A stretch of DNA of 64,000 nt from assembly GCA_018645365.1 (NCBI GenBank), contig JABGOP010000003.1, positions 3,967 through 67,966 of the forward strand, written 5' to 3'. This DNA is from Candidatus Cloacimonadota bacterium. Lineage in GTDB: Bacteria; Cloacimonadota; Cloacimonadia; Cloacimonadales; TCS61. The notes under the pieces were generated by a model. That model ran no database searches and was not told the origin of the DNA. It was given only the letters and a program-made list of their open reading frames with translations. This document shows positions 20,792-58,951 of the stretch, piece by piece. Within the stretch, counting starts at the first letter, position 1, and each line of letters opens with the position of its first letter. A program made the position numbers and the translations under genes.

Positions 20792-20794
20792 TGA

Positions 20795-21762: not shown

Positions 21763-21774
21763 AAATTTACCAAA

Positions 21775-23325
21775 TTACAATGGAATATTTCCGTGTTTTC
21801 GAGGTGGGTTAGAATCTTTTTTATTAGCTAACATTTCGAGTGCACGAATAATTCTAAAACGCGTGTCTGCTGGTTCAATCACATCATCTATATAACCTTT
21901 TTCTGCTGCTAAATATGGGTTAGCAAATTTTTCTTTATATTCTTTGATTTTAGCTGCCACAAATTTTTCCTTATCTTCTGCTTCAGCCACATCCTTGCGG
22001 AAAATTATTTCGACTGCACCTTTTGGTCCCATCACCGCAATTTCGGAAGATGGCCACGCGTAAACCATATCAGCACGCATGTGACGACTATTCATCACAC
22101 AATAAGCACCACCGTAAGCCTTTCTTAAAATCACTGTAATTTTGGGAACTGTTGCTTCCGCAAAAGCATAAAGTAATTTCGCACCGTGACGAATAATGCC
22201 ATTCCATTCTTGATTTGAACCTGGCAAAAATCCTGGTACATCCTCCAAAACGACGAGTGGAATATTGAAAGAATCACAAAAACGGACAAATCGAGCTGCT
22301 TTTACTGACGCATTAATGTCCAAAACGCCCGCTAAAAATTTTGGTTGATTTGCCACAATTCCAACACTTTGTCCGTTCATTCTGCAAAATCCAACCACTA
22401 TATTTTGAGCAAAATTTCTGGCAATTTCCAAAAATTCACCATTATCAACGATGCTCTCAATCACATCTAAAATGTCATAGGGCTTATGTGCGTTTTCAGG
22501 AATAATTTCATTCAATTCATCACAATTTCTTTCAGCAATATCTGTCGAAGCTTTCACAGACGGTCCTTCCATGTTATTGGAGGGAATGTAATCTATCAAT
22601 TGGCGAATAAGCTGAAGTGTTTCTTCTTCATCCTCAGTAACAAATTGTGCAACTCCACTTTTGGAAGCGTGCATAAGTGCACCACCCAAATTTTCCGTTG
22701 TAATATCTTCATTTAATACAGTTTTCACAACTTTCGGACCAGTCACAAACATATAGCTCGATTGTTTATTCATAATAATAAAATCGGTAATCGCAGGCGA
22801 ATAAACCGCACCACCAGCACAGGGTCCCATTATCGCTGAAATTTGAGGAACAACACCACTAGCCATCACATTCCGCAGAAAAATATCGGCGTATCCAGCA
22901 AGTGCATCTACTCCTTCTTGAACGCGTGCTCCACCAGAATCATTTAAGCCGATTAGAGGTGCACCAACTTTCATAGCTAAATCCATTATTTTGCAAATTT
23001 TTGCGGAATGAGTTTTGGATAATGAACCGCCGACAACGGTGAAATCTTGGGCGTAAACATAGACCAATTTGCCATCAATCGTCCCACAACCAGTAACCAC
23101 GCCATCACCCAAAAATCTTTGTTTCTCCATTCCCAAGTTGGTACATTGATGTTTCACAAATGCATCAAATTCTTCGAAACTATCTGGGTCCAAAAGTATA
23201 TTTAATCGCTCACGCGCTGTCAATTTTCCTTTTTTATGTTGTGCTTCGATTCGTTTTTCGCCACCACCCAAACGTGTTTCAGTACGTTTTTCACGCAATT
23301 CTTTAATTTTAGCTAAATTTGACAT
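21775..23325 (-). CDS. mmdA: Methylmalonyl-CoA decarboxylase alpha subunit / acyl-CoA carboxyltransferase
   Basis: Carboxyl transferase domains with [12 protein letters not shown] and [13 protein letters not shown]. The track start 23328 is GTG; the ATG at 23325 follows GGAGGT. Confidence 0.93.
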
Positions 23326-23384
23326 CACACCTCCAAATATGTAAATTACTTATTTATTTCATTATTTTTGAGTCAATGAAAAAA

Positions 23385-28723: not shown

Positions 28724-28750
28724 AAAAAAAGCCCACAAAATTTTGTGGGC
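28724..28750 (-). terminator. Rho-independent terminator ending the kor-hdr-frd-suc-fum-mae operon
   Basis: Perfect 10-bp stem gcccacaaaa/ttttgtgggc (28731-28750), 8 nt after the malic enzyme stop. On the minus strand it is followed by a run of 7 T (28724-28730). Confidence 0.8.
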
Positions 28751-28758
28751 TTCGATTT

Positions 28759-30210
28759 TTATACATTTTCAATCGCAAATTTTAGTGCATTTTGCAACAT
28801 TTCGTCGGGCGGAGTATCTATCAATCCGCTTTCCGTCATCATTTTAAGTGTTTTTTCACTCATCGAAATATCTTTCTTGGCAAGGTTATAAACTTCATCC
28901 CAGCTCATCTCAATTCGTGCCACGCCATCTTCGATGGCTTGCATTGCCACATCAGCTGCTTCTCTCGGAAACACATCCATTTCATCCATTTTTGGTACGA
29001 TATTTTCTGTATTTATACCGCGTTTTTCAGCAAATTTCGCCAAAGATTTAGCGGCGGTAATCGCCATATTATCGGTAATTTTTTTAGCTCGAACCAAAAG
29101 TGCACCTTTCAAAATACCAGGAAAACCAACAGAGTTATTAACCTGATTTGGGAAATCACCACGACCAGTTGCCACAATAAAAGCACCCGCCTCTTTGGCA
29201 GCGTAAGGATAAATTTCTGGAATTGGATTTGCACAAGTAAACACGATAGACTTTTCTGCCATTGAAGCAATCCATTCGGGCTTAACCGTTTCTGGACCTG
29301 GTCTAGAAAGTGCAATCATCACATCTGCGTTTTTACAAGCTTCCGCAAATGTATCAATTTTTTGTGGATTTGTAGTTTCACAAAGTTCCCATTTTCGATA
29401 AAATCGTTCGTCAGTTTCGATGTCTTTCCTATCCAAATGCAAACCACCTTTTGAATCAAACAAGGCAAGATTTTTTGGGTTTCCACCAGCCTTGATAATT
29501 AATCTAGCAATTGTTGTATTGGAAGCACCTGCACCCAAAAGAACAATTTTCACATCTTCAATTTTTTTCTCAACTAATTTGAGAGCATTAATTAAACCTG
29601 CTAAGGTAACGCAAGCTGTGCCTTGTGCATCATCGTGCCAAACTGGAATATCGCACTCTTCGCGCAGAGTATCCAAAACTTTGTAACAGTTTGGTTGAGA
29701 AATATCTTCCAAATTAACAGCACCAAAACTCGGTTGCAACATTTTCACAAATTCGATAATTTTATCTGGATCTTTTTCACCGTTTTCATTTGTACTATCA
29801 ATGCATAATGCCGTGGCATCTACACCACCTAAACATTTCATTAGGAATGCTTTACCTTCCATCACACCGAGCCCTCCCGGTGGCGTGCAATCACCATCGC
29901 CGAGAACACGAGTAGAATCACTAACCACTGCCACATAATTTCCGCGATTGGAAAGCTCGAAACTCGTATCGTTATTGTCACGAATGGTTGTGGAAACCTT
30001 AGAAACGCCCGGCGTGTACCAAACATTAAACCAGTTAAATCCAAAAACACCCGCCTTTGGAGCAGTTTGAACTTTACCACCGTAAAACTTATGAGCTGAA
30101 AACGACAATTCCTTTAGGAATATAGTTTTAGCTTTCGCTATTTGCTCTTTTGTAAAATTTTTTGGGAATACTTCATCTAAGTTTGATAGATCAAGTTTTA
30201 TTTTTCTCAT
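28759..30210 (-). CDS. NAD(P)-dependent malic enzyme
   Basis: VVSDSTRVLGDGD, GVMEGKAFLMK and the Rossmann motif LGAGASNTTIA, collinear with short prokaryotic malic enzymes. Confidence 0.9.
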   Translation of the reverse strand: MRKIKLDLSNLDEVFPKNFTKEQIAKAKTIFLKELSFSAHKFYGGKVQTAPKAGVFGFNWFNVWYTPGVSKVSTTIRDNNDTSFELSNRGNYVAVVSDSTRVLGDGDCTPPGGLGVMEGKAFLMKCLGGVDATALCIDSTNENGEKDPDKIIEFVKMLQPSFGAVNLEDISQPNCYKVLDTLREECDIPVWHDDAQGTACVTLAGLINALKLVEKKIEDVKIVLLGAGASNTTIARLIIKAGGNPKNLALFDSKGGLHLDRKDIETDERFYRKWELCETTNPQKIDTFAEACKNADVMIALSRPGPETVKPEWIASMAEKSIVFTCANPIPEIYPYAAKEAGAFIVATGRGDFPNQVNNSVGFPGILKGALLVRAKKITDNMAITAAKSLAKFAEKRGINTENIVPKMDEMDVFPREAADVAMQAIEDGVARIEMSWDEVYNLAKKDISMSEKTLKMMTESGLIDTPPDEMLQNALKFAIENV

Positions 30211-30211
30211 T

Positions 30212-30769
30212 TTAAAAGCCCTCTTTTTTATATTTTTTTACGCCTTCTTTGTAAATATCATTACCCTGCACATCATTTGCTACAATACATGGGAAATTTT
30301 CCACTTTCATTTCGCGAATTGCTTCTGGACCCAAGTCTTCATAAGCAATAATTTTTGCTTCTTTGATGGAATCTGCCATAACTACTGCTGCCCCACCAAT
30401 TGCTGCCAAATAAACAGCATTATTTTTTTGCATTGAAGCAATTACTTCTTCACTTCGCGGACCTTTCCCAATCATTGCCTTTAAGCCAACATTCAAAAGA
30501 GCCGGTGCATACGGGTCCATTCTGTAGCTTGTGGTTGGCCCCGCTGAACCGATAGGACGACCAGGTGGTGCTGGTGCTGGTCCAACATAGTAGATAATCT
30601 GACCTTCTACATCAAATGGCAATTCTTTACCATTTTCGAGAAGCTCTACTAATCTTTTATGAGCCGCATCTCGTCCACTATAAATAGTCCCAGAAATAAA
30701 TACTTTGTCACCAATTTTCAATTTTTCCAAATCGGTTGTTTTGAGAGGAGTTTCTAAATATATTTCCAT
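30212..30769 (-). CDS. fumB: Class I (Fe-S) fumarate hydratase, beta (C-terminal domain) subunit
   Basis: GTIYSGRDAAHKRL and GPAPAPPGRPIGSAGPTTS, typical of Fe-S hydro-lyase beta subunits. A tartrate dehydratase beta subunit cannot be excluded from sequence alone. Confidence 0.88.
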   Translation of the reverse strand: MEIYLETPLKTTDLEKLKIGDKVFISGTIYSGRDAAHKRLVELLENGKELPFDVEGQIIYYVGPAPAPPGRPIGSAGPTTSYRMDPYAPALLNVGLKAMIGKGPRSEEVIASMQKNNAVYLAAIGGAAVVMADSIKEAKIIAYEDLGPEAIREMKVENFPCIVANDVQGNDIYKEGVKKYKKEGF

Positions 30770-30781
30770 TCTACATCCCTC

Positions 30782-31627
30782 CTAAATTATGATGCTTTTG
30801 TGGCGAGCCGCATGGCATTGCACATTCACAGCTACTGGCATCGACGCAATGTGGCAAGGTTTCGTGAGAATGTGGACAGCGAGAGCTGTCGTATTTCCAC
30901 CTAAACCTTGTGGACCAATGCCGAGATTATTGATTTTTCCCAAGATTATTTTCTCAATTTCCGCCCATTTTGGGTCAGGATTTTCTTCATCTAAATTGCG
31001 TAATAACGATTTTTTTGAAAGAAGGGCACTTTGCTCAAAATTACCACCCAAACCAACACCTACGATAATTGGTGGACAAGGATTTCCGCCTGAACGTGCG
31101 ATTCTATCCACCACAAAATCGATAACACCTTCGATTCCATCAGCAGCTTTCATCATTTTGACTTCGCTCATATTCTCGGAACCACCACCTTTTGGAGCAA
31201 CCGTAATCTTCAAATCTTCACCCGCTACGATTTCGGTATAAATAATAGCTGGCGTATTATCGGTCGTATTTTTCCGTTCTATGATTGGATCATTCACCAT
31301 CGATTTTCGCAAATAACCAGCTTCATAACCTTGTTTAACACCTTCATTTATCGCGGTTGTAAAATCTCCGCCAACAATATGAACATCTTGCCCAATCTCC
31401 ACAAAAATTACCGCAATTCCAGTATCTTGACAAATGGGCATTCTGTTTTCGGCAGCAAGTTCATAATTTTTGAGAAGAATATCCAAAACATCTTTTGCGG
31501 TTGGAGAAGTTTCTTTCACATAAAACTCTTTGATTTTTGCCACCAAATCTTTTCCGATAAAATAATTTGCATCGATACACAAATTTTTCACAATTGGAAT
31601 GATTTCATTTACATTAATTTCTCGCAT
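30782..31627 (-). CDS. fumA: Class I (Fe-S) fumarate hydratase, alpha (N-terminal domain) subunit
   Basis: MPICQDTGIAVIFVE and PCPPIIVGVGLGG with conserved Cys ligands. Confidence 0.88.
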   Translation of the reverse strand: MREINVNEIIPIVKNLCIDANYFIGKDLVAKIKEFYVKETSPTAKDVLDILLKNYELAAENRMPICQDTGIAVIFVEIGQDVHIVGGDFTTAINEGVKQGYEAGYLRKSMVNDPIIERKNTTDNTPAIIYTEIVAGEDLKITVAPKGGGSENMSEVKMMKAADGIEGVIDFVVDRIARSGGNPCPPIIVGVGLGGNFEQSALLSKKSLLRNLDEENPDPKWAEIEKIILGKINNLGIGPQGLGGNTTALAVHILTKPCHIASMPVAVNVQCHAARHKSIII

Positions 31628-31633
31628 AATTCC

Positions 31634-32509
31634 TCATTTTTTGAAAAGCACCTTGGCTACTGTTTCACCAATCTGTGCTGGAGTTTCCGAAACCGTTACG
31701 CCCGCATTTTGAAGAGCTACTATTTTCTCTTGTGCGGTGCCTTTACTGCCAGCAATAATTGCACCAGCATGCCCCATTCTTTTACCTTTTGGTGCAGTTT
31801 GCCCCGCGATAAATGCTACCACTGGCTTGGAAATATTTTCTTTAATAAATTCGGCAGCTTTAATCTCTAATTCGCCACCAATTTCACCGATTAAAACAAT
31901 CGCTTCTGTTTCATTATCGGCTTCAAAAAGTTGTAAAAGTTCAATGTATGAAGCTCCAATAATTGGGTCACCACCAATTCCAACTGCAGTGGTGATGCCA
32001 AATCCAGCTTGTACAATTTGATTCGCCGCTTCGTAAGTAAGTGTGCCCGATTTAGAGATGAGCCCCACATTTCCTTTTTTGAAAACATAGCCCGGCATAA
32101 TCCCAATTTTTGTCTCTTCAGCGGTGATAATTCCTGGACAATTCGGACCAATAAGAGTTGCACCTTTATCCTTCACAAAGCGTTTCGCAATTACCATATC
32201 ACTCACTGGAATGCCCTCTGTAATACAGACAATTATTTCGATACCAGCATCTGCCGCTTCCATTATTGCTTCTGCGGCAAAAGCAGGTGGTACAAAAATA
32301 AGGCTGACATTTGCTCCCGTGGCGATAACTGCTTCAGATACAGAATCGAATACTGGCTTAGCCAAATGAGTGGTTCCCCCTTTTTTGGGAGTAACACCGC
32401 CCACAATATTTGTGCCATACTCTAAACATTGTTCCGCGTGAAAACTACCCTCTTTTCCAGTAAAGCCCTGCACAATTATTTTTGAATTTTTATTCACTAA
32501 AATACTCAT
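31634..32509 (-). CDS. sucD: Succinyl-CoA synthetase alpha subunit
   Basis: [17 protein letters not shown] and the phosphohistidine region MGHAGAII. I prefer the ATG at 32509 (MSILVNK...), which follows GAGAGG and lies 1 nt after the sucC stop. The track extension to 32548 would overlap sucC. Confidence 0.95.
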
Positions 32510-32510
32510 T

Positions 32511-33677
32511 TTAACCTCTCGCAGCAGCCACGACTTTTTTGGCGCCATCGCTCATACTTTCTGCAGTTATGATATTTTGAATGTTTGCTTTTTTGAGAAT
32601 TTCGGATGCTTCTTTCGCATTTGTTCCATCTAATCGAATCACGAGTGGAACATTCACATTTATTTTTTGAGTCGCTTCCAAAATTCCATTCGCAATACGG
32701 TCACAACGCACAATGCCACCAAAAATATTCACAAAAATTGCTTTTACATTTGGGTCTTTCAAAATAATTTCGAAACTTTTGGCGACTGTTTCGGCTGTTG
32801 CTTTTCCACCTACATCAAGAAAATTTGCTGGCTCACCGTTTTCGTGTTTGACAATATCCATCGTGGACATCGCCAAACCAGCCCCATTCACCACACAACC
32901 TACATTTCCATCTAGTTTTACATAACTCAAACCATATTTATCAGCTTCTAATTCAGTTGGTTCTTCTTCGTCAAAATCACGCATTGCGGCAATTTCTTTG
33001 TGTTTGAACATCGCGTTATCATCGAATCCTACTTTTGCGTCGAGAGCGATAAATTCATCATCATCGGTTAATACAAGCGGATTAACTTCAATCATATTCG
33101 CATCTTTTTGCACATATATTTGGTATAAAGATGCGACTAAGTTGGTTACTTTTTTGGTTAAATCTGCGTTCAAACCAAAAGTTTTTGCAATCATTCTGCC
33201 GTGAAAACTGCGAAAACCGATAAGTGGATTTATTTGAATTTTAACGATTTTTTCTGGCATTTCTGCCGCCACTTTTTCGATGTCCATTCCACCTTCTGCC
33301 GATGCAATAATGACTGGCATTTCGGTAGCTCTATCTAAAAGGATACTCAAATAATATTCCTCTTTGATGTCCACCGCTTCCACAATATACACTTTTTGAA
33401 CCAATTTTCCTTCTGGTCCAGTTTGGTGCGTAACAAGATTCATACCCAAAATTTCGTGAGCATATTTTCCTACAGCTTCCAAGTCTTTGGCAAATTTCAC
33501 ACCACCGCCTTTACCTCTACCACCAGCGTGAATTTGTGCTTTCACTACCCAACTTTTTCCGCCAATTTCTTTGGCAGCGGAAATTGCATTTTCTGCATTT
33601 TCGATAATTTTCCCATTTTGAACTGGAATGCCAAAATCGGCAAAAATCTGCTTCGCTTGATATTCGTGAATATTCAT
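32511..33677 (-). CDS. sucC: Succinyl-CoA synthetase beta subunit
   Basis: [12 protein letters not shown], the ATP-grasp region and a C-terminal ligase-CoA domain (GGIVRCD). Confidence 0.96.
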
Positions 33678-33686
33678 ATTCCCTCT

Positions 33687-35357
33687 TTAATAAAGCGTAC
33701 CTTGATAGATCGTTGTCAATTGCTTTGCTTTTACATGATTTGGAATGTAATCTGGCAACAAAATCGGTGAAATTCGTTTTTTATCAATGCCCAATTTTTC
33801 CACCTCTTTCGCGTATTCATCTGCGTGTTTTATTGAAAGTTCACCCAATTCAACTCCATTCAAAACTTTTTCTGCTGCGTTTTTTCCAGCTCTTCTGCCA
33901 AACACAATAATGTCGAGTTGGGAATTGCCCATCAGTCTATTTCTACCGTGAATACCACCAGCTGCTTCGCCAGCTACATAAAGTCCAGGAATGGAAGTTT
34001 CTGATTTCGCATTAATTTCCAATCCACCGTTTTGATAATGCAAAGTTGGGAAAACCAACATCGGATATTCACGAATATCGATGTCAAATCTACTGTATTG
34101 ACGCAACATTGCTGGCAATACACTTTCGATTGTACCTTCACCACTTAATTCTTCGATGAGGGGAGTATCGAGCCAAATTCCTTTCAAACCAGTTGGAGTG
34201 GAAACACCTTTATCATCTTCACATTCACGAATGAAAGCTGATGCTTCGATGTCGCGCGGTTCGAGCGGAAACACAAAAAGTTCACCGTCTTTATTTACCG
34301 GTTGAGCACCCAAAGCACGAATTTTTTCAGTACATAAAAAGCCAACAATTTGTTCTGGAAAAACTGCGCCGGTCGGATGATATTGAACTGAATCCATATA
34401 AAGTAAATTTGCACCAGCACGATAACCCATCACGAGACCATCAGCAGTTGCACCATAATGATTTGTGGTTTCGAAATCACGAATGTGCAATCTACCGAAG
34501 CCACCAGTAGCAATAATCACAGTTTTCGCTTTGACGATAAAATATTCTTTCAATTCCATGTGATACAAAATAGCACCAGCTACTTGCCCTTTGTCATCTT
34601 TGATGAGTTCTGTGGCGGAAGTGTATTCCAAAATATTAATTCCATCAGGGTGACTTTGCACTTCATCACGCAGAACACGGCAAATCCCAGCACCGGTATA
34701 GTCACGAGTCGAGTGCATTCTGTTACGACAAGTTCCACCACCTGGTTTCACCATCATCGAACCGTCTTCGTTTTTATCGAACATTACGCCCAATTCTTCC
34801 AGCCATTTGATAGATTGCGGTGCATCCATTACAAGTGCCTCAACCAAATCTTTTTTATTATCGAAATGACCGCCACCAACTACATCGAGGTAGTGTAAAT
34901 AAGGGTTGTCATCTGTTTGATCTGCCGCCTGAATTCCACCTTGTGCCATCATCGAGTTAGCATCACCGAGACGCAATTTCGTTACCAACATTGTTTCCAC
35001 ACCTTTTTTGGAAGCTTCCAATACTGCTGAAAGTCCTGCGGAACCAGCTCCAATTACGAGAACATCGGTTTCGTAATCTATTTTTGAAAGATCAAAAGTT
35101 GACGATGAATTTCGCGGATAAGCTTCTATAATATCTGCAACTTCATTGATCATTTTGTCGCCTTTATTTGGTCCAATTCGCACTTCTTTGAGAGCATCGT
35201 CCTTGTAATCTGGATGATAAGTATTTAAAATATCTGCGCGTTCTTGTTCACTCATTGCCGGAAAAACTTTTTTACCGTATTTTCTGGCTATTTCGAGTCG
35301 TTTTGCTCGCGTCTCCGCCACTTTCTTGATAGATTCCATCATATATTCTGGATACAT
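33687..35357 (-). CDS. Fumarate reductase/succinate dehydrogenase-family flavoprotein (soluble type, non-covalent FAD predicted)
   Basis: FAD motif DVLVIGAGSAGLSA, VQYHPTG, TEKIRALGA (compare TEGxRGEGG) and GEAAGGIHGRNRLMGNS. At the position of the covalent-FAD His (SHT in SdhA/FrdA) it reads ANSMMAQGG. It has an N-terminal extension of about 95 aa and a short C-terminus. Confidence 0.8.
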   Translation of the reverse strand: MYPEYMMESIKKVAETRAKRLEIARKYGKKVFPAMSEQERADILNTYHPDYKDDALKEVRIGPNKGDKMINEVADIIEAYPRNSSSTFDLSKIDYETDVLVIGAGSAGLSAVLEASKKGVETMLVTKLRLGDANSMMAQGGIQAADQTDDNPYLHYLDVVGGGHFDNKKDLVEALVMDAPQSIKWLEELGVMFDKNEDGSMMVKPGGGTCRNRMHSTRDYTGAGICRVLRDEVQSHPDGINILEYTSATELIKDDKGQVAGAILYHMELKEYFIVKAKTVIIATGGFGRLHIRDFETTNHYGATADGLVMGYRAGANLLYMDSVQYHPTGAVFPEQIVGFLCTEKIRALGAQPVNKDGELFVFPLEPRDIEASAFIRECEDDKGVSTPTGLKGIWLDTPLIEELSGEGTIESVLPAMLRQYSRFDIDIREYPMLVFPTLHYQNGGLEINAKSETSIPGLYVAGEAAGGIHGRNRLMGNSQLDIIVFGRRAGKNAAEKVLNGVELGELSIKHADEYAKEVEKLGIDKKRISPILLPDYIPNHVKAKQLTTIYQGTLY

Positions 35358-35369
35358 AATTCTCTCCGT

Positions 35370-36053
35370 TTAGGTAATTTTTATTTCACGATCGTAATAT
35401 ACTTTCGATAATTCATCACGATCCATTTTGTTTAATTTTTCGATATCAGCATCATATTTCCCGTTTTTAACTTCTTCAACCCGATTATCCAATTCTGGGC
35501 TTTTCTTCGCTAAATATTTGCCGTAAAGTCGGCGTGCTAAAATGCCATTATCATATTGAACTATTTCCGCTGGACAACGCATTGCACACAATCCACAACG
35601 AATACAATCGAACGAAATATTTGCCGCAGATTCCAAATCGCCACGAATTATGGACTGAATATAGTCCATCACTTGAATATCTTGTGGGCACGCTTTTGTG
35701 CAAGTATTGCAAGCGACACATCGGAAAACTGACGGAAATAAATTTGTGAAAGTTCCCACATCTGGCGTTAATGTTTCCAATTCATACAGCGGTTTTTCGG
35801 CTGGTACAAATGGAATTTGCGTAATCGCCATTCCTTCTGTAACAACGGTTTGACAGCCCAACCCACCTTTCAATTTGTAATCGCCTTTTTCACGATAAAC
35901 AGTAGCACAAGCACCACAATATCCCTCTCGACAGCCAACACCTCTTTTTAATTGAAATCCAGCATATTCGAGCGCCATAATAATCGTTGAACCTTCTGGT
36001 ACTTTGAAAAGTTCACCAGACAGATAAACAGTTACCATCTTCTTTTCCATCAT
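35370..36053 (-). CDS. Iron-sulfur subunit ([2Fe-2S] + two [4Fe-4S] motifs), SdhB/FrdB/TfrB-N-like
   Basis: CREGYCGAC...C (plant-type 2Fe-2S) followed by CVACNTCTKACP and CIRCGLCAMRCP. Confidence 0.8.
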   Translation of the reverse strand: MMEKKMVTVYLSGELFKVPEGSTIIMALEYAGFQLKRGVGCREGYCGACATVYREKGDYKLKGGLGCQTVVTEGMAITQIPFVPAEKPLYELETLTPDVGTFTNLFPSVFRCVACNTCTKACPQDIQVMDYIQSIIRGDLESAANISFDCIRCGLCAMRCPAEIVQYDNGILARRLYGKYLAKKSPELDNRVEEVKNGKYDADIEKLNKMDRDELSKVYYDREIKIT

Positions 36054-36949
36054 TTTGCTCCCTTTATTTTTTCATATTTTTTTAAAATTTCATTTGGATT
36101 TATGGCGTTAAATTCCAATCCCAAATCACTTTTTTCTAAACCTAATGCAATTCCCAAAAGTTGAGTAAAATAGAAAATTGGCATTGTTTGAAAATCAGAA
36201 TTTTTCACTGCCATCTCTTTTTGACGAACATCAAGGTTAAAGGCACAAAGTGGACAAGATGTAATGATTGCTTCCGCTCCATTTTCGCGTGCATCATTAA
36301 TGATACCACTCACTAATTTTTTCACTAAATCAATATTTTTGACAGTGTGATAACTGCCACAACAACGGCTTTTAGCATCCCATTCTACACTTTCTGCGCC
36401 CATTGCGGTTACTAATTTTTCCATAATTTGCGGTGCTTCTGGATCATCGATGCCAACCTCTTTCGGACGCAAAAGCATACAGCCATAATAGGACGCAACT
36501 TTTAGATTTTTAAGTGGATTTTCAATTTTTAATTTATCAAAACCCCATTCATCTAAAATGGAAAGAAAGTGAACAACATCGACGCTACCTGCATAATTTT
36601 CATCCTCGCGGTGCATAAAATCATTAATTTTCTGAAGTTCATCTGCATTTTCTTTCATTCTGTTATTCGTCAAACTAAGCGTATTGTAGCACATCGAACA
36701 GAGTGTAAGCAGTCGATTCTCGCTCACGGCTTCTGCCTTATTCATCTCTTGAACACGCAGGAAATTACGAACTGGTGCGAGGTGTTTCATTAAATCGTCA
36801 CTTGTCAAAGAAGAGACAACACCGCAGCAATTCCAACGCGGAATTTCCACAAATTCAATGCCAATTTTTTTGGCAGATGCAATTGCCGACATCTCAAAAT
36901 TTTTGGCTGTTGTTTTCATTGTGCAACCTGGAAAATATGGTATTTTCAT
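36050..36949 (-). CDS. HdrB/SdhE-like subunit with two CCG domains
   Basis: Two cysteine-rich CCG units: YFPGC...WNCCG...LCSMC and YYGC...RCCGS...SCPLC. No TM helix. Confidence 0.85.
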   Translation of the reverse strand: MKIPYFPGCTMKTTAKNFEMSAIASAKKIGIEFVEIPRWNCCGVVSSLTSDDLMKHLAPVRNFLRVQEMNKAEAVSENRLLTLCSMCYNTLSLTNNRMKENADELQKINDFMHREDENYAGSVDVVHFLSILDEWGFDKLKIENPLKNLKVASYYGCMLLRPKEVGIDDPEAPQIMEKLVTAMGAESVEWDAKSRCCGSYHTVKNIDLVKKLVSGIINDARENGAEAIITSCPLCAFNLDVRQKEMAVKNSDFQTMPIFYFTQLLGIALGLEKSDLGLEFNAINPNEILKKYEKIKGAK

Positions 36950-36965
36950 CTATTTTTCTCCTCTT

Positions 36966-37370
36966 CTATCCAGTAAATTTTCGGAAATTCCCAACGAGTG
37001 CAATTGTTGGTAATTTCACAGCTTCAGCTGCATCAATTTCTGCAATATCTATGTTATCAACCGCTTCGCGTAATTTAACTTGTCTAAGTGCTTCCGACAC
37101 TTTAGAAAGGTCGAGTTTACGCGGGCAACGAATAGTGCAAGTGTAACAAGAAGCACAAAGCCACATTGTTTGAGATTCCATCACCTCTTCTTGACCGAGC
37201 ATCACGAGACGCATTATTTGAGAAGGATTTATGTCCATCTCTTCCACAAATGGACAACCACCAGAGCAGGTTCCACATTGTTCACAAAGAGTAACTTGCT
37301 CGCCGCTCAAATCCATTATTTTTTCGAGAAATTTGGTTGTTTTGTCGGTAAATTTAATTTTTTTAGCCAT
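36966..37370 (-). CDS. HdrC-like 4Fe-4S dicluster protein
   Basis: CEQCGTCSGGCP and CASCYTCTIRCP in a 134-aa protein, matching the size and spacing of HdrC. Confidence 0.8.
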   Translation of the reverse strand: MAKKIKFTDKTTKFLEKIMDLSGEQVTLCEQCGTCSGGCPFVEEMDINPSQIMRLVMLGQEEVMESQTMWLCASCYTCTIRCPRKLDLSKVSEALRQVKLREAVDNIDIAEIDAAEAVKLPTIALVGNFRKFTG

Positions 37371-37372
37371 CG

Positions 37373-39754
37373 TTATCTCTCCAATTTAGCTTTTTGCTCA
37401 TCAGAAAGTGAGCCCAATTTATCTATCAATTCAGCAAGTTTGTTGATTTCAGAAATAAATTTCATCAAATCTTTTGCTTCAAATTGTGAAAAAATTAGTC
37501 TATCAGTTTCGATGTTTAGTTTCTTGAGTTTCTCGGCAACCACTTCCATATTTTTGCGAGTTACCGCATTTGCCCATTCGAAACGAGATGCTTTGACGGG
37601 ACTATCACCCAAAAATACAGCATCTGCACCTTTTGCAAAAGCATATTCGATCAAGCTTGGCGTAATTCTACTTACACTTGGCACTCTGAAAACGCGTGCG
37701 TAATTAGTGTATTTCATTTTACGCACACCGCACGCATCGATGAGGCGATAAGTAGTGTTGTCATCCGCAAAAACGATAATCCGTTTTTCATTATCTTTTT
37801 TGAATTTTAGTGCTGCTGAAACTTCTGCATAGAGTTGCTCATTTGTGTAATAATGCAAATCGAGAGCTTCCACGGGACAGCTTTCTAAACACGAGCCACA
37901 CCCCAAACAGAGTGCTTCGTTTACTTCCGCTTTTCCGTCTGCATTGATTGAAATCGCTTTTGGTGGACAAGCATTCAAACACTTTTGACAACCATCACAA
38001 ATATCTTGGTGAACGAACGCTAAAATTGGATCTATCGGCACTTCTTTTTGGGCCAAAGTTGCGATAACTCGTGCTGCTGCTGCACTTGCTTGTGTAACAG
38101 TATCTGGAATATCTTTCGGACCTTGTGCCACACCAGCTAAGAAAACGCCTTCCACTAATGTATCGACTGGCTTATATTTCGGATGAGCTTCTTTGAAAAA
38201 CCCATCATCAGATTTTGCTAATTTCAAAGTATCGGCGACTATTTCGGACGCTTTATTCGGCTCCAAACCGTTCGCCAAAACCACCAAATCAAAATCAGAT
38301 TCGATAATATTACGCGAGAGAGTATCTTCCACCGTTACGGTTACTTTTTTGTTAATTTTATTTTCCACAAAATGGGAAGGCTTGCCACGCACAAATTTGA
38401 TTCCCATATTCTGGGCACGTTTATAATATTCTTCGTAACCTTTGCCAAATGCTCTCAAGTCCGTGTAGAAAATATAGATATCTTTTTCTGGTTTTGCTTG
38501 TTTGAGGAGCGATGCTAATTTTACCGAATACATACAGCAAACGCGCGAGCAATATTCGTTTCCAATTTGTTCATCACGCGAGCCAACGCATTGCACAAAA
38601 GCAATTCTTTTCCCTATTTTTCGAGGTGGCTCCGCTTCCGAAATGTGATCGACAATGCGTTCCATCTCCAAAGCCGTAACCACATTTTTGAATTTACCAT
38701 AGCCAAAAACAGGTTTACGCATCGCATCAAAAATATCGTAACCTGTTGCCACCACAACGCTATCTACTGCTACATCAACGATTTTTTCTTCTTGCGTAAA
38801 ATCTATTGCTTGTTGAGGGCAAATATCCACACATTTTGAACACGAGTTATCGATAAAATGAGAGCAATTTTCAGTATCCAAAATATAGCGATATGGAATT
38901 GCGTGCGGTGCTGGAATGTAAATTGCTTTACGGTCGATGACACCTTGCTCCCAATAATTCGGCTGAGAAACTGGGCAAACTTCTGTACATTTATTGCAAA
39001 TCAAACATTGATCCATATCAATATCACTTTTTATGTAACGCGGATGTATTTTCACTTTTGCTTCAAAATGAAGACGATGTCCGGCAATGTCCAAAATTTC
39101 TGCATTCGTGTAAAGTGTGATGTTCGGATGGTCGGTAACTGCCGCCATTTTAGGTGAAATAATGCACGCTGCACAATCTTCTGTTGGAAAAGTTTTGGTA
39201 AGCACCGCCATCATCCCACCGAGAGTTGGCAATTTTTCTACAAGTGTAACTTTTTTGCCAGAATCAGCTAAATCGAGCGAAGTTTGAATACCAGCAATTC
39301 CACCACCAATAACGAGAATTTCATTACCAAGTTGCATTTTTTTCTCTTGTAAAGCAAAATCTAATTCTGCTTTTGAATGAGATGCATCGACAATATCTTT
39401 TGCTTTTTCGGTAGCAATTTCGGGGATATCTTTATGAATCCACGAACAGTGTTCACGCAGATTGGCAATCTCCAAAACATATGGATTCAAACCTGCTTTT
39501 TTCAAAGCTCCACGAAATGTTTTTTCGTGAAAATGAGGTGAACAAGAAGCGACAACTATTTTTTTTAATCCGTGTTTCTTTACATCGTCGATGATAAGTT
39601 GCTGTCCTTTTCCAGAACACATATGGCTATATTCTTGCACCAAAATATCATCATTATTTTTTTTCAGATGCTCTGTTACTTTTGGTAAATCTACCGTATT
39701 AGAGATGTTCCCGCCACACTGACAGAGATAAATTCCAGTCTTTTTAGTTTCCAT
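37373..39754 (-). CDS. HdrA-like FAD/Fe-S oxidoreductase fused to a C-terminal MvhD-like domain
   Basis: N-terminal Cys-rich domain (IYLCQCGGN...HMCSG...ASCSPH). FAD motif ILVIGGGIAGIQTSL. Inserted ferredoxin CLICNKCTEVCP/CSKCVDICP. C-terminal ferredoxin CDGCQKCLNACP/CLGCGSCLESCP. aa ~657-765 are MvhD-like (IIVFADDNTTY...RVPSVSRI...GADAVFLGDSP). Confidence 0.88.
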   Translation of the reverse strand: METKKTGIYLCQCGGNISNTVDLPKVTEHLKKNNDDILVQEYSHMCSGKGQQLIIDDVKKHGLKKIVVASCSPHFHEKTFRGALKKAGLNPYVLEIANLREHCSWIHKDIPEIATEKAKDIVDASHSKAELDFALQEKKMQLGNEILVIGGGIAGIQTSLDLADSGKKVTLVEKLPTLGGMMAVLTKTFPTEDCAACIISPKMAAVTDHPNITLYTNAEILDIAGHRLHFEAKVKIHPRYIKSDIDMDQCLICNKCTEVCPVSQPNYWEQGVIDRKAIYIPAPHAIPYRYILDTENCSHFIDNSCSKCVDICPQQAIDFTQEEKIVDVAVDSVVVATGYDIFDAMRKPVFGYGKFKNVVTALEMERIVDHISEAEPPRKIGKRIAFVQCVGSRDEQIGNEYCSRVCCMYSVKLASLLKQAKPEKDIYIFYTDLRAFGKGYEEYYKRAQNMGIKFVRGKPSHFVENKINKKVTVTVEDTLSRNIIESDFDLVVLANGLEPNKASEIVADTLKLAKSDDGFFKEAHPKYKPVDTLVEGVFLAGVAQGPKDIPDTVTQASAAAARVIATLAQKEVPIDPILAFVHQDICDGCQKCLNACPPKAISINADGKAEVNEALCLGCGSCLESCPVEALDLHYYTNEQLYAEVSAALKFKKDNEKRIIVFADDNTTYRLIDACGVRKMKYTNYARVFRVPSVSRITPSLIEYAFAKGADAVFLGDSPVKASRFEWANAVTRKNMEVVAEKLKKLNIETDRLIFSQFEAKDLMKFISEINKLAELIDKLGSLSDEQKAKLER

Positions 39755-39758
39755 ATTT

Positions 39759-40298
39759 TCACTCTTTATCTGCTAATTTAAAACCGATTTTTAATGCTTT
39801 TATATTCATTTCGTGAAATCTCGGTTTGATTGAATTTTTTACTGCTTTTTTCAAGGATGCTTCACTCACAACACCTGTTTTTCTCACCAAAAATCCGAGT
39901 GACATAATGTTTGTTGGAAGCACACTTCCTAATTTTTCCATTGCTATGTTTGTAAATGGAATTTCATAAATTGTAGAATCCATTACCGAAACATTTTTTA
40001 CATTTGAACTGTCTGCAATCAAAATTCCATCTGCTTTCAAGTCGTCACTATATTTATCGCAAGCTTCTTGAGTTAATGCCAAAAGCACATCAAAACTTGT
40101 CGCTTCTGGGAAATAGAATTTTTTATCACTAATTATCACATCAGCACGGCTAGCTCCACCGCGAGATTCGGGACCATAACTCTGTGTTTGTGTTACGATT
40201 GCATTGTCTATTACAGCGGCGCGTGCCAAAATAATCCCAGCTGTAATAAGCCCTTGTCCGCCGCTTCCACTGAGACGAATTTCATTCATTCCATTCAT
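39759..40298 (-). CDS. korC: 2-oxoacid:ferredoxin oxidoreductase gamma subunit
   Basis: LSGSGGQGLITAG at the N-terminus; 179 aa. Gene order is delta-alpha-beta-gamma. Confidence 0.88.
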   Translation of the reverse strand: MNGMNEIRLSGSGGQGLITAGIILARAAVIDNAIVTQTQSYGPESRGGASRADVIISDKKFYFPEATSFDVLLALTQEACDKYSDDLKADGILIADSSNVKNVSVMDSTIYEIPFTNIAMEKLGSVLPTNIMSLGFLVRKTGVVSEASLKKAVKNSIKPRFHEMNIKALKIGFKLADKE

Positions 40299-41143
40299 TA
40301 TTTTTCTCCATCTTCAGGCTTGAGAGAATCGATAAGTTTATCGTATACTGCTGTATATTCCGGCTTAATTTCTTTACGGAAAATACCGCGTTTAAGCTTG
40401 TTTTCTCTTTCATTCTCAGTGAGAGCTTCAAAAGATTTTACTGGAATAATGTTTTCTTTCATTTGACGCATCATCTTAGAAGCATCGCCTTTTTTATTCA
40501 ATTTTCCATAAATTACCGGACACGCGCTAATCACTTCTATTAAAGCAAATCCTTTGTGTTCCAAACCTTGCTTAATGAAAGATTGAGTTTCAACAGCGTG
40601 ATACGCCGAGGTTCTCGCTACAAAAGTTGCACCAGCACCCATGGCAAGTTCACAAATATCAAAAGTTGGGTCTAAATTTCCGTAAGGTGTAGTTGTGGCT
40701 TTATCACCAGTGGGGGTGGTTGGAGAATATTGCCCACCTGTCATTCCATAGATGTTGTTATTTATCAAAATAACTGTTAAATTTATGTTACGACGAGCGG
40801 CGTGAATAAAATGATTTCCGCCAATTGCAGTTGCATCACCATCACCAGTTACCACCATCACATCCATTTTTGGTTTATACATTTTGATACCTGTCGCATA
40901 CGCTATTGCTCTACCGTGAAGCGAATGTAATGTATTGAAATCCACATAAACTGGCATTCGACTGGAACATCCAATTCCAGAAACCATCGTTGTGTTTGTA
41001 CGACGCCATTCCAATTCACCAACTGCACGCATAATCGCACCCATCACGATGCCGTTACTACAACCCGGGCACCAAACATGAGGAAATTTTTTCTTCTGTC
41101 TCAAATATTTATTATGAATGTGTTTTTGTTTGATTTTTGACAT
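40298..41143 (-). CDS. korB: 2-oxoacid:ferredoxin oxidoreductase beta (TPP-binding) subunit
   Basis: VWCPGCSNG and the TPP motif VVTGDGDATAIGGNH...NNNIYGMTGGQ. Confidence 0.92.
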   Translation of the reverse strand: MSKIKQKHIHNKYLRQKKKFPHVWCPGCSNGIVMGAIMRAVGELEWRRTNTTMVSGIGCSSRMPVYVDFNTLHSLHGRAIAYATGIKMYKPKMDVMVVTGDGDATAIGGNHFIHAARRNINLTVILINNNIYGMTGGQYSPTTPTGDKATTTPYGNLDPTFDICELAMGAGATFVARTSAYHAVETQSFIKQGLEHKGFALIEVISACPVIYGKLNKKGDASKMMRQMKENIIPVKSFEALTENERENKLKRGIFRKEIKPEYTAVYDKLIDSLKPEDGEK

Positions 41144-41144
41144 T

Positions 41145-42308
41145 TTACCGAACCTCCTTCACTTTATTTACTATATCATCCGGCGTAATCAACTCTCCGT
41201 TACATTTCTGAATTGGAATAATTCTTTTTGTTTTACTTGTGTTTATGTTCCAAATACCACCCATCACTCTTTGAATTTCACCAAGCATCTGACCTTGGCT
41301 CAATTCCGGCACGATTATTGTGTTCACATCTTTGAAATATTCTTTAATTGCTTCATCTGGAAATGGCCAAATTGTGAGTGGACGAATCAGTCCAATTTTC
41401 TTGCCCGATTTGCGTAATTTTTCTACCGCTGTTTTAGCCGCACGAGCTGTAATTCCGGCTGCAAAAATAGCAGTTTTTGCGTCTTCCATTTGGAAATTTT
41501 CCACTTGAATTAAATCCTTCAAATGATGCGTGATTTTCTTACGCAGGCGATCCATCATAATTTTTACTTCATCAGCACGATTGGTTGGAAAACCGCAAGC
41601 ATCGTGTGCCAAACCAGTAACATGGAAACGATAACCCTCACCGTAACTTGCCATTGGATGGATATATTTTGGTTTGTCTTGATAATGTTTGTACCATTCT
41701 GGTGGAACCGTTGGTTTGATTCGATTGACGATTTTCACTTTTTCCAAATCAGGAAGCACCACTGCCTCACGCATATGACCTAAAACTTCATCGAGTAGTA
41801 AAACCACGCAAGTTCTATATTTTTCAGAAAGATTGACCGCCCGAATTGTCAGTTCATAAATTTCTTTCACAGAATCTGGATAGAGAACGATAGCTGGTGC
41901 ATCACCGTGATTTCCCCAACGCGACTGCATAATATCACTTTGTGAAGGTTTGGTCGGCAAACCAGTACTCGGTCCACCACGCATCACATTGACGACTACG
42001 CAAGGTGTTTCTGTTATTTTAGCAAAACCAATCCCTTCCATCATCAAAGAAAATCCGGGACCACTTGTTGCTGTCATCGCTTTTGCACCAGCAAGAGAAG
42101 CACCAATTATTGAAGAAATACCCGCAATTTCATCTTCCATTTGAATAAATTTTCCACCTATTTTGGGTAACTCTGCCGAAAGGATTTCTGCAATTTCGGT
42201 AGATGGAGTAATGGGATAGCCTCCAAAAAAATCTACTCCCGCATCGATAGCTCCACGGGCTACCGCTTCATTGCCTTGCATCAAAATCATTTTATCTGAA
42301 CTTTTCAT
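41145..42308 (-). CDS. korA: 2-oxoacid:ferredoxin oxidoreductase alpha subunit
   Basis: GNEAVARGAIDAGVDFFGGYPITPSTEI and MTATSGPGFSLM. 2-oxoglutarate specificity is inferred from the adjacent sucCD, not from sequence. Confidence 0.92.
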   Translation of the reverse strand: MKSSDKMILMQGNEAVARGAIDAGVDFFGGYPITPSTEIAEILSAELPKIGGKFIQMEDEIAGISSIIGASLAGAKAMTATSGPGFSLMMEGIGFAKITETPCVVVNVMRGGPSTGLPTKPSQSDIMQSRWGNHGDAPAIVLYPDSVKEIYELTIRAVNLSEKYRTCVVLLLDEVLGHMREAVVLPDLEKVKIVNRIKPTVPPEWYKHYQDKPKYIHPMASYGEGYRFHVTGLAHDACGFPTNRADEVKIMMDRLRKKITHHLKDLIQVENFQMEDAKTAIFAAGITARAAKTAVEKLRKSGKKIGLIRPLTIWPFPDEAIKEYFKDVNTIIVPELSQGQMLGEIQRVMGGIWNINTSKTKRIIPIQKCNGELITPDDIVNKVKEVR

Positions 42309-42317
42309 AATCTTCCT

Positions 42318-42638
42318 CTATTTTTCCTTCGCACCAGTTATGGCAAAATCAGGGCATAACCTGTCGCACATTTCGCAATGAATGCATTTTTCTGGATGTT
42401 TCACATAAGGTGAACCATCTGGTTTACTTGCCAAAGTTCCAGTTGGGCAAAATGAGACACAAATGCCACACTTTTTACACCAATCGTGGTAAATATAAAC
42501 CGGAGATTCTCGATAATCACCTTCCGATTTAACCTCTGTTTCTTCCACTTCCATCTTCGCCGCAGAACCATCACCGTGAATTACAGTGCCAGTTTTAAGC
42601 TTTTCTACTTCACCATTTTTCAATGTCTTCGACATCAT
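42318..42638 (-). CDS. korD: 2-oxoacid:ferredoxin oxidoreductase delta (ferredoxin) subunit
   Basis: CKKCGICVSFCP and CIHCEMCDRLCP, preceded by an acidic N-terminal extension of about 45 aa. AAGGAG Shine-Dalgarno. Confidence 0.85.
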   Translation of the reverse strand: MMSKTLKNGEVEKLKTGTVIHGDGSAAKMEVEETEVKSEGDYRESPVYIYHDWCKKCGICVSFCPTGTLASKPDGSPYVKHPEKCIHCEMCDRLCPDFAITGAKEK

Positions 42639-42761
42639 TTCTCCTTGTTTTTGGATACTATTATCCCGTTTATAATCGCGTGTATTTTATACAATAATTG
42701 TTTGTTTGAATAACTAAATTTGGATAACTCTAAAGAGTCCATTTCTGGTATCAATAACCTC

Positions 42762-58950: not shown

Positions 58951-58951
58951 A

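Follow-up and report, generated by a model that had tools for sequence, protein, structure and literature searches.

The 64,000-nucleotide stretch of contig JABGOP010000003.1 from a Candidatus Cloacimonadota bacterium (hereafter the window) contains five consecutive minus-strand open reading frames (ORFs) at 33687-39754, which encode a fumarate reductase-like flavoprotein (FP) and its iron-sulfur subunit (FeS) together with HdrB-, HdrC- and HdrA-like proteins. The ORF list of the window placed all five at exactly the coordinates given in a first-pass annotation of this DNA, and the 2-16 nt gaps and 4-nt overlap that it had reported (12 nt between the FP and FeS genes, 16 nt between hdrB and hdrC and 2 nt between hdrC and hdrA, with the overlap between FeS and hdrB) and its domain identities were recovered from the ORF list, Pfam and NCBIfam matches and Cys counts. 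The absence of a membrane anchor was likewise confirmed. No transmembrane helix was predicted in any of the five proteins using Kyte-Doolittle hydropathy (19-residue segments, maximum ≤1.33), and no Pfam family of SdhC/D, FrdC/D or cytochrome b was found on any called gene of the 64-kb window. Pfam also gave no hydrogenase, Flx, NuoF or Fdh on any of these genes. The features of the locus are given in Table 1.

Table 1. Predicted genes and transcription signals at the locus, in coordinates of the window.
Feature	Position	Strand	Description
Flavoprotein (FP)	33687..35357	-	556 aa, putative fumarate reductase catalytic subunit of FrdA/SdhA fold, non-covalent FAD predicted
Fe-S subunit (FeS)	35370..36053	-	227 aa, SdhB-like [2Fe-2S] domain and two [4Fe-4S] motifs
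HdrB-like protein	36050..36949	-	299 aa, two CCG domains, two non-cubane [4Fe-4S] clusters predicted
HdrC-like dicluster ferredoxin	36966..37370	-	134 aa, Pfam Fer4_17/Fer4_8
HdrA fused to cluster-less MvhD-like domain	37373..39754	-	793 aa, FAD and Cys for six [4Fe-4S]
korD-korA-korB-korG	39759..42638	-	Pfam Fer4, POR_N/PFOR_II, TPP_enzyme_C, POR; ends 4 nt upstream of hdrA
sucC-sucD-fumA-fumB-malic enzyme	28759..33677	-	Pfam ATP-grasp_2/Ligase_CoA, CoA_binding, Fumerase, Fumerase_C, malic/Malic_M
Promoter-like site (consensus match only)	42727..42754	-	TTGATA-16-TAGAGT, 9/12 matches, in uvrB-korD spacer
Intrinsic terminator-like hairpin	28728..28753	-	11-bp stem with 5 GC pairs, then TTTTTATTT

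The five genes occupy the centre of a 14-gene minus-strand block that runs from 42638 to 28759 in the order korD-korA-korB-korG, hdrA-hdrC-hdrB, FeS, FP, sucC-sucD, fumA-fumB and malic enzyme. All gaps in the block are ≤16 nt (≤12 nt from sucC to the malic enzyme gene in the ORF list), and a strong terminator-like hairpin, the strongest such site between 28 and 45 kb, starts 6 nt past the malic enzyme stop codon. These two features indicate that the 14 genes form one predicted operon for part of the citric acid cycle. The block is preceded by a 123-nt spacer between uvrB and korD. The promoter-like site in this spacer is weak evidence, as the number of such sites in the region equalled the chance expectation from shuffled sequence. 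The korDABG products were most like a four-subunit 2-oxoacid:ferredoxin oxidoreductase (Kor) with 2-oxoglutarate as the closest type; KorA exceeded the cut-off of model PRK08659 (543 against 411) and the top model for KorB was the beta subunit of 2-oxoglutarate ferredoxin oxidoreductase. The longest sucD ORF (31634-32548, minus strand) overlaps sucC by 38 nt, and on sister contigs sucD is called from a start 13 codons further in (291 aa), with which sucC and sucD nearly abut. Proteins identical to those of the window were present on several metagenome contigs.

The FP matched Pfam FAD_binding_2 over residues 98-479 (E 3.5e-71). When it was aligned with E. coli FrdA, SdhA and NadB, and separately within a set of 25 family representatives, the dicarboxylate-binding and catalytic residues H327, T343/E344, R368, H440 and R474 were invariant in both alignments, corresponding to H232, T244/E245, R287, H355 and R390 of E. 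coli FrdA. The histidine that carries the covalent 8-alpha-FAD bond in FrdA (H44) is replaced by Asn134; all close family members examined also have Asn at this position, and the more distant short-FP representatives have Asn or Lys. Non-covalent-FAD enzymes of the SdhA/FrdA superfamily reduce fumarate and oxidise succinate very poorly, and the substitution therefore suggests that the FP would act in fumarate reduction rather than succinate oxidation. The first-pass description of an SdhA/FrdA flavoprotein stood with respect to fold and active site, but not in overall architecture. The FP has no Succ_DH_flav_C domain in Pfam, its alignment stops approximately 130 residues short of the FrdA and SdhA C-termini, and the helical domain missing there is one common to SdhA, FrdA, NadB and TfrA. 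The FP has instead a short tail at its C-terminus and, at its N-terminus, a conserved extension of 95 aa. The AlphaFold2 model had a moderate pLDDT of 74.8, low around the FAD-site loops, and a Foldseek search returned solely the expected FrdA/SdhA/Fcc3 folds, including E. coli FrdA (1kf6_A, E 1.7e-29) and 7d6x_A (E ~1e-29), matched over about 450 columns, and did not illuminate the N-terminal extension.

Three other identities for the FP were considered and rejected, two of which, L-aspartate oxidase and adenosine phosphosulfate (APS) reductase, the first-pass annotation had named as findings that would overturn its reading. The glutamate that defines L-aspartate oxidases (NadB E121) is absent, Gly206 being aligned there, the score on TIGR00551 was 264 bits against a cut-off of 453, and no nadA or nadC was found by Pfam in the FP neighbourhood. 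No AprA occurred among 53 PDB matches (E ≤ 1e-10) or the 25 best NCBIfam models, and neither aprB nor sat was found in the window. The best NCBIfam model was that of TfrA (NF004900), on which the FP gave 323 bits against a cut-off of 718 over model positions 6-424 of 546. A genuine TfrA representative scored 765 bits on this model and lay apart from the window FP in the tree, so that the cut-off, the tree position and the architecture all argue against a true TfrA. All of the NCBIfam SdhA/FrdA models also scored the FP under their cut-offs. In a neighbour-joining tree of 25 representatives with 200 bootstraps, the FP was placed in a clade of 100% support with proteins from Marinimicrobia, Aminicenantes and Clostridia. 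The deep nodes received 8-45% support, so that the relationships between TfrA, SdhA and the short-FP group are not settled by this tree. On these data the FP is placed in a branch of its own within the fumarate reductase superfamily, marked by short length and non-covalent FAD.

The FeS subunit has exactly 12 Cys (4+4+4), in keeping with its Pfam matches to Fer2 and a 4Fe-4S dicluster domain. C41/46/49/67 lie in a CREGYCGAC...C motif and two CxxCxxCxxxCP motifs are present at 112 and 150. It aligned collinearly with E. coli SdhB (BLASTP E 3e-5), whose 2Fe-2S motif it shares, and matched SdhB chains in the PDB (E 3e-6), and by these matches is a distant SdhB relative. No CCG domain was found on its 227 residues, the CCG domains being located on the separate HdrB-like gene. 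The FeS gene adjoins that of the FP in 71 of 72 related loci, the remaining locus (L076) having a tblastn match to FeS, and a metagenomic protein of 727 aa (P0122) is a natural FeS-FP fusion in which residues 1-216 form the FeS part, with 34% identity to the window FeS over its whole length. This adjacency and the fusion indicate that FeS and FP are an obligate pair. The conserved catalytic residues of the FP and the fumarase and SucCD genes flanking the pair support its assignment as a fumarate reductase-type catalytic core, as had been proposed.

The HdrB-like protein contains two CCG domains in Pfam, scored 187 bits on the SdhE model and 183 bits on the HdrB model of NCBIfam, and matched methanogen HdrB (8rvu_b) over its full length (E 7e-45). 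It retains all 10 CCG Cys, at 9, 41, 42, 84, 87, 157, 196, 197, 232 and 235. The HdrC-like protein (TIGR03290, 74 bits) has CxxCxxCxxxC motifs at 29 and 72. Residues 1-650 of HdrA were collinear with methanogen HdrA (8rvu_a/5odc_A; 666 bits, E 6e-199) and contain the FAD motif and Cys sufficient for six [4Fe-4S] clusters. Residues 656-782 matched MvhD (5odc_D), with Pfam FlpD at 659-781, and the HdrA2 model of NCBIfam aligned over the full length (residues 5-783, 862 bits).

The distribution of the family was examined in a scan for FP homologues using one genome per species, which gave 291 relatives. The FP of the 80 best were 62-84% identical to that of the window, apart from one partial match at 87%, and came from Cloacimonadota, Marinimicrobia, Delongbacteria, Fidelibacterota, Spirochaetes, Bacteroidales, Sumerlaeota, Armatimonadota, Aminicenantes, WOR-3 and Clostridia. 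FP-FeS pairs are present in at least eight phyla. A 542-aa protein of Prochlorococcus sp. MIT 1201 (P0285) was found in a 90%-identity cluster with a short-FP representative that is 41% identical. Synteny was analysed by tblastn and ORF clustering, with 52 loci having at least 5.5 kb upstream taken as informative. Among these the FP was accompanied by FeS in 51, HdrA in 41, HdrB in 39, Kor in 21 and MvhA/G in 14, while 10 had no Hdr gene nearby. The conservation check proposed in the first-pass annotation thus came out in favour of a lasting link to Hdr. Adjacency was seen in Cloacimonadota, Marinimicrobia, Delongbacteria, Aminicenantes, Sumerlaeota, Spirochaetes, Bacteroidales and Clostridia, the order of the genes being variable, and the recurrence of the five-gene arrangement in dozens of genomes from several phyla indicates that it is not due to chance. 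FP-FeS is flanked by fumarase and SucCD genes in approximately 20 related loci as well as in the window.

Several architectures recurred among the loci. The window type (15 loci) has HdrA-HdrC-HdrB-FeS-FP with fumarase, SucCD and malic enzyme, and an HdrA of approximately 790-810 aa with a degenerate MvhD fused; no further gene is conserved across the 15. The hydrogenase type has HdrC-HdrB-HdrA (approximately 650 aa)-MvhD-FeS-FP with MvhG, MvhA and the HycI protease (Pfam Oxidored_q6, NiFeSe_Hases and HycI), often with Kor upstream. Of the 52 informative loci, 14 had MvhG, MvhA and HycI beside Hdr-MvhD-FeS-FP, and over all 79 loci the number was 19-21. A third type, from Aminicenantes, has the Kor genes placed between hdrB and hdrA. 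In a Flx-like type, found in some Aminicenantes, a Fer4_22 protein and a PyrK-like NAD-binding protein replace MvhD, and a fifth type has a GlcD-like FAD oxidase with a ferredoxin and MvhD. The NuoF type is a three-gene FeS-FP-NuoF operon of marine Gammaproteobacteria with an FP that is 45% identical. In the last type FeS-FP stands alone or within Kor-glyoxalase-fold protein-FeS-FP-SucCD, and includes loci L009, L011, L012 and L052 from close Cloacimonadota relatives. These observations suggest that FeS-FP is a portable fumarate-reducing acceptor module for various cytoplasmic donors, mostly via HdrABC. Its function as an acceptor module for soluble reductants is indicated by the Mvh, Flx-like and NuoF donor modules of the relatives.

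Several of the related loci had additional features. In Thiotrichales-like metagenome-assembled genomes (L089/L090, 9366-12891) the tight FeS-FP-NuoF operon, with Pfam Complex1_51K and NADH_4Fe-4S, is a candidate for a simple soluble NADH:fumarate reductase. A 134-aa Glyoxalase_4 protein, which may be a methylmalonyl-CoA epimerase, is encoded between korG and the FeS gene in the Cloacimonadota loci that have no Hdr (L009 5726-6133, L012 8570-8974, also L011 and L052). Tandem HdrA genes were found in L036, L042 and L046, where a degenerate-MvhD fusion of approximately 795 aa occurs together with an HdrA of approximately 650 aa followed by an intact stand-alone MvhD, and L029 contains two HdrC-HdrB sets, one of which follows an MvhD-like ORF truncated at the edge of the contig. 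Small genes of the 23S_rRNA_IVP/bAvd-like four-helix family and of the PDDEXK_3 nuclease family recur in several lineages within or beside the otherwise tight Hdr-FeS-FP operon (L016 9509-9877, L029 9592-9945, L034, L035, L036 and L044-L046).

From the observed gene content, cofactor motifs, catalytic residues, operon structure and conserved synteny, we consider with moderate confidence that these genes code for a fumarate reductase of the cytoplasm that is independent of quinone, works in the reductive direction and is most likely bifurcating at HdrA. This reading extends to physical assembly, electron path, direction, bifurcation and donor identity, all of which are inferred. Electrons would pass from the FAD of HdrA through the HdrC clusters and the non-cubane clusters of HdrB to the [2Fe-2S] and two [4Fe-4S] clusters of FeS, and from there to the FAD of the FP and fumarate. 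The enzyme would in effect be a methanogen thiol:fumarate reductase (TfrAB) whose parts are encoded by separate genes and which connects directly to HdrAC. In TfrAB electrons reportedly run from the CCG clusters through the FrdB-like chain to FAD (Heim 1998, as cited in PMC8542988). HdrA would split electron pairs from a soluble mid-potential donor, sending one electron downhill to fumarate (E0' +33 mV) and the other uphill to ferredoxin, and the reduced ferredoxin could feed the co-encoded Kor, Rnf or hydrogenases. Per C4 unit, Frd would consume two electrons at high potential and Kor two at low potential, equal to a 1:1 bifurcation output, a stoichiometry argument made earlier for tubeworm symbionts (PMC6315080).

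The proposal of bifurcating coupling between fumarate and ferredoxin made in the first-pass annotation found support in the relatives that carry Mvh or Flx-like modules. These have the composition expected of a classical bifurcating Hdr complex in which fumarate takes the place of the heterodisulfide. The position of the Kor genes, which abut hdrA in the window and are interleaved between hdrB and hdrA in Aminicenantes, is a further point in favour, as are the six cluster motifs of HdrA with its 666-bit match to a bifurcating HdrA of solved structure, and the full set of 10 Cys in HdrB. For the window variant itself the donor is probably either NAD(P)H, reacting directly at the HdrA FAD, or reduced ferredoxin; a soluble donor of this kind is indicated by the cluster-less MvhD domain and the lack of an encoded donor module. 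HdrA2B2C2 takes ferredoxin or F420H2 without a docked dehydrogenase, and NADH has been suggested for bacterial homologs (PMC5296606). Bifurcation driven by NAD(P)H is therefore preferred for the window variant, with rather low confidence. The fullest version of the proposal is a self-contained five-subunit complex in which, without a dehydrogenase module, hydride from NAD(P)H enters directly at the HdrA flavin and is bifurcated to fumarate and ferredoxin, the latter giving a 1:1 supply to the co-transcribed 2-oxoglutarate synthase. This version is tentative, and we regard it as possible but rather doubtful.

A number of observations weigh against the bifurcating fumarate reductase. The two-electron donor module (Mvh, Flx, Fdh or NuoF) is absent from the window and from all 15 window-type loci, and for this reason bifurcation is unproven for the window variant. 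The HdrA2, HdrB and HdrC scores of 862, 183 and 74 are under the NCBIfam cut-offs of 1100, 345 and 160, and the FP is under its equivalog cut-offs too. The first-pass annotation had described a complete HdrABC with MvhD. The motifs of HdrA, HdrB and HdrC are indeed complete, but the fused MvhD domain retains none of the five conserved Cys, with one Cys in the whole domain, and would thus be unable to bind a [2Fe-2S] cluster. In the reference set of 37 stand-alone MvhD from related loci, 31 have all five Cys and five others have four. The MvhD domain of Methanosarcina acetivorans HdrA2 is predicted to bind Fe2S2, unlike that of the window (PMC5296606). A search of HdrA for a second dinucleotide-binding motif gave the single motif only, which would leave the FAD as the site where NAD(P)H must react. 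The 10 informative loci without nearby Hdr include relatives with an FP that is 82-84% identical, and imply that FeS-FP can work with other partners or directly with ferredoxin. Among them are L009, L011, L012 and L052, and loss of Hdr from such close relatives had been put forward beforehand as evidence against a coupled enzyme. This applies only in part, because Hdr genes have been reported elsewhere in the genera concerned (PMC8542988).

Other genes of the window give some indication of the metabolism in which the enzyme may function. On the minus strand at 19676-23328 an MmdA-like carboxyltransferase (839 bits), a 182-aa protein without a Pfam match, a biotin carrier and a Na+-translocating decarboxylase beta subunit are encoded, which together are probably a methylmalonyl-CoA (or glutaconyl-CoA) decarboxylase sodium pump. 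Such a pump would fit a reductive route from succinate to propionate. A urocanase gene for the degradation of histidine to glutamate lies on the plus strand at 13523-15553 amid genes without Pfam assignment, and the pump and urocanase fit an amino-acid or C4 fermentation toward succinate and propionate. Apart from these, a polyprenyl synthase gene adjoins genes for a UbiA-family prenyltransferase and a PcrB-family protein (GGGP synthase-like) on the plus strand at 58063-60519, a trio that resembles the archaeal-type ether-lipid gene set known from FCB-group bacteria. A plus-strand ORF of 797 aa (30-2423) has the unusual combination of a full phosphoglucose isomerase domain and a C-terminal Macro (ADP-ribose-binding) domain.

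The main rival to a bifurcating enzyme is a non-bifurcating ferredoxin:fumarate oxidoreductase, in which reduced ferredoxin from Kor or pyruvate:ferredoxin oxidoreductase would deliver electrons through HdrA, HdrC/HdrB and FeS to fumarate as the electron sink of an amino-acid or malate fermentation to succinate and propionate. The Kor genes directly upstream of hdrA, the lack of a mid-potential donor module in the window or window-type loci, the cluster-less MvhD domain, and the ferredoxin-dependent reductase activity of HdrA2B2C2 (PMC5296606) are all consistent with such a wire, as are the MmdA-like Na+ decarboxylase and urocanase, which point to fermentation of amino acids to propionate, and the relatives with FeS-FP but no Hdr, in which the pair may accept ferredoxin directly. 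It would, however, dissipate about 0.5 V for each electron in an anaerobe that is short of energy, and a complete HdrA with such high conservation relative to bifurcating HdrA would be needless for a mere wire. The pairing of the same module in relatives with H2- or NAD(P)H-oxidising modules, a hallmark of bifurcating complexes, also argues against it, and we regard it as credible but unlikely. The reverse process, a confurcating succinate dehydrogenase in which high-potential electrons from succinate and low-potential electrons from reduced ferredoxin would merge at the HdrA FAD and pass to a mid-potential acceptor, had been raised in the first-pass annotation and would allow succinate to be oxidised by syntrophs that live on propionate or amino acids. 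Cloacimonadota have been discussed as syntrophic propionate oxidisers without a recognisable Sdh (PMC13082233, PMC12590816), bifurcating Hdr chemistry is reversible in principle, and hydrogenase-linked versions exist in relatives. The suggestion was nevertheless not supported and is quite improbable: the covalent-FAD His is Asn in the family members, the TfrA representative (P0192) likewise lacks this His and has Gly there, no mid-potential acceptor module was found in the window, and the sodium pump fits succinate conversion to propionate.

Two further explanations would separate the Hdr genes from direct electron transfer to FeS-FP. HdrABC could, as in methanogens, reduce a disulfide (of low molecular weight or in a protein) while a separate Tfr-like activity, comprising FeS-FP and a CCG protein, re-oxidises the thiols with fumarate. 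CoM and CoB are not known from these bacteria, and as each cluster has one CCG protein the disulfide-reducing and thiol-oxidising sites would have to be identical. The FP fails the TfrA cut-off and sits outside the TfrA clade, and FeS is not fused to CCG domains as TfrB is. Thiol-mediated coupling is therefore improbable, despite the retention by HdrB of all 10 Cys of the disulfide-reducing site, the KEGG/JGI label 'fumarate reductase (CoM/CoB) subunit A' and the name TFR in PMC8542988; the published scheme for Cloacimonadota places CoM/CoB in this role. It is highly improbable that the Hdr genes have no functional relation to FeS-FP and share a central-metabolism operon with it by position alone, their role being, for example, in the metabolism of sulfur or of some disulfide. 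This would account for the 10 of 52 loci that keep FeS-FP without Hdr, and some Cloacimonadota Hdr genes do lie in sulfur-related clusters (PMC8542988). Against it, the adjacency recurs in at least eight phyla despite reshuffled gene order, in most loci that contain Hdr genes FeS-FP immediately follows Hdr or MvhD, and the window genes overlap once, by 4 nt, and are otherwise 2 to 16 nt apart.

Which high-potential acceptor bacterial HdrABC uses in the cell is a long-standing question, to which the FeS-FP family, as a dedicated module of two subunits, offers a testable answer in fumarate. If the NAD(P)H-bifurcating reading is true, the enzyme would provide the first defined physiological high-potential acceptor for bacterial HdrABC, and fumarate would join the substrates that drive bifurcation. 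A bifurcating enzyme would allow fumarate reduction to conserve energy without quinones or membranes and would cover the cost of fixing CO2 with ferredoxin at 2-oxoglutarate synthase. This bears on the efficiency of the reductive tricarboxylic acid (TCA) cycle and on succinate and propionate fermentations. A single acceptor core combined with H2-oxidising, Flx-type NAD(P)H-oxidising, NuoF or no donor modules also forms a natural series for studying the assembly of bifurcating complexes. The proteins are currently annotated merely as 'FAD-binding protein' or mis-assigned to TfrA, and it is because of this that the fumarate/succinate step is scored as missing in genome reconstructions; in other work on Cloacimonadota the Sdh/Frd step is mostly listed as absent (PMC12590816, PMC13082233). 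Recognition of FeS-FP would close this gap in models of the TCA branches of Cloacimonadota, Marinimicrobia, Aminicenantes and others.

When the window enzyme was compared with known systems, it resembled methanogen TfrAB in being soluble and anchor-less, in lacking the covalent-FAD His, and in having an FrdB-like Fe-S chain fed by HdrB-type CCG clusters. TfrAB serves the reductive branch to 2-oxoglutarate together with Kor. Unlike TfrA, the window FP has an N-terminal extension, no C-terminal domain and a position in a separate clade, and whereas TfrB carries its FrdB-like domain and two CCG domains on one polypeptide, FeS and the CCG protein of the window are encoded separately. The addition of HdrC and HdrA means that thiols are probably not the donor. 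The likeness to MvhADG-HdrABC (PDB 5ODC, 8RVU) lies in the full-length matches of HdrA, HdrB and HdrC with all cofactor motifs, and in the related loci, though not the window, MvhA/G/D and the HycI protease are carried in the cluster. In contrast, the window has no hydrogenase, its MvhD ligands are gone, and the inferred acceptor is fumarate via FeS-FP instead of CoM-S-S-CoB. Methanosarcina acetivorans HdrA2B2C2 shares the HdrA-MvhD fusion, HdrA2 being the best NCBIfam model (PMC5296606), but the window protein scored under the cut-off of 1100, has 0/5 of the MvhD Cys and would use a different acceptor. The locus differs from canonical complex II in the FP, which lacks the covalent-FAD His and C-terminal helical domain, and in having no membrane anchor. 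To our knowledge F420 is not expected in this bacterium. Like type E Sdh/MFR (SdhABE), the window has an HdrB-like CCG protein with the A and B subunits, and SdhE and HdrB models gave similar scores (187 and 183 bits). The SdhE score is, however, far under the cut-off of 500 bits; in contrast to SdhABE there is no Tat signal, the predicted FAD is non-covalent, HdrA and HdrC are present, and quinone is not implicated. The five-subunit Frd of Hydrogenobacter thermophilus (Miura 2008, in PMC13147460) is comparable by description only, as a soluble, multi-subunit, irreversible enzyme in a reductive TCA context; PMC13147460 presents it as characterised and NADH-dependent, with no demonstrated ferredoxin coupling.

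The idea of an Hdr-linked fumarate reductase is itself already published for sister clusters. Williams et al. 2021 (PMC8542988) described a cluster with 'TFR', 2-oxoglutarate:ferredoxin oxidoreductase (OGOR), fumarase, succinyl-CoA synthetase (SCS), Mvh and Hdr in Ca. Celaenobacter (Cloacimonadota), for which an H2-driven reductive TCA cycle was inferred. Ca. Celaenobacter antarcticus is represented here by L042, with an FP that is 69% identical to that of the window. A bifurcating Flx-Hdr-TfrAB-Kor complex was proposed for Ca. Endoriftia by Rubin-Blum et al. 2019 (PMC6315080) and in a 2026 survey (PMC13147460), and an Hdr-linked 'TFR'/Frd cluster was also proposed from the genome of Thioflavicoccus (PMC6315080, PMC13147460). 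Koendjbiharie and colleagues (PMC7282089, with reference to a 2019 preprint that put forward the bifurcating Frd) proposed a ferredoxin-coupled Frd with Flx-Hdr in the 'succinate operon' of Pseudoclostridium thermosuccinogenes. The flavoproteins of Endoriftia and Clostridium are likened to that of the window by gene logic and may belong to the same short-FP family. The first-pass statement that no Frd-HdrABC complex had been characterised agrees with the literature searched, in which neither purification nor assay of any Hdr-linked fumarate reductase was found, but such clusters had been described in PMC6315080, PMC7282089, PMC8542988 and PMC13147460. What appears not to have been described before is the short non-covalent FP/FeS family as a modular acceptor, and the hydrogenase-less HdrA2-type variant with a cluster-less MvhD. 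The window locus thus resembles the published clusters in combining a Frd pair with HdrABC, with or without Kor, fumarase and SCS, and in the same proposal of bifurcation to fumarate and ferredoxin, and differs from them in that they contain Mvh hydrogenase or FlxABCD, while the window has no donor module and its MvhD is fused and cluster-less.

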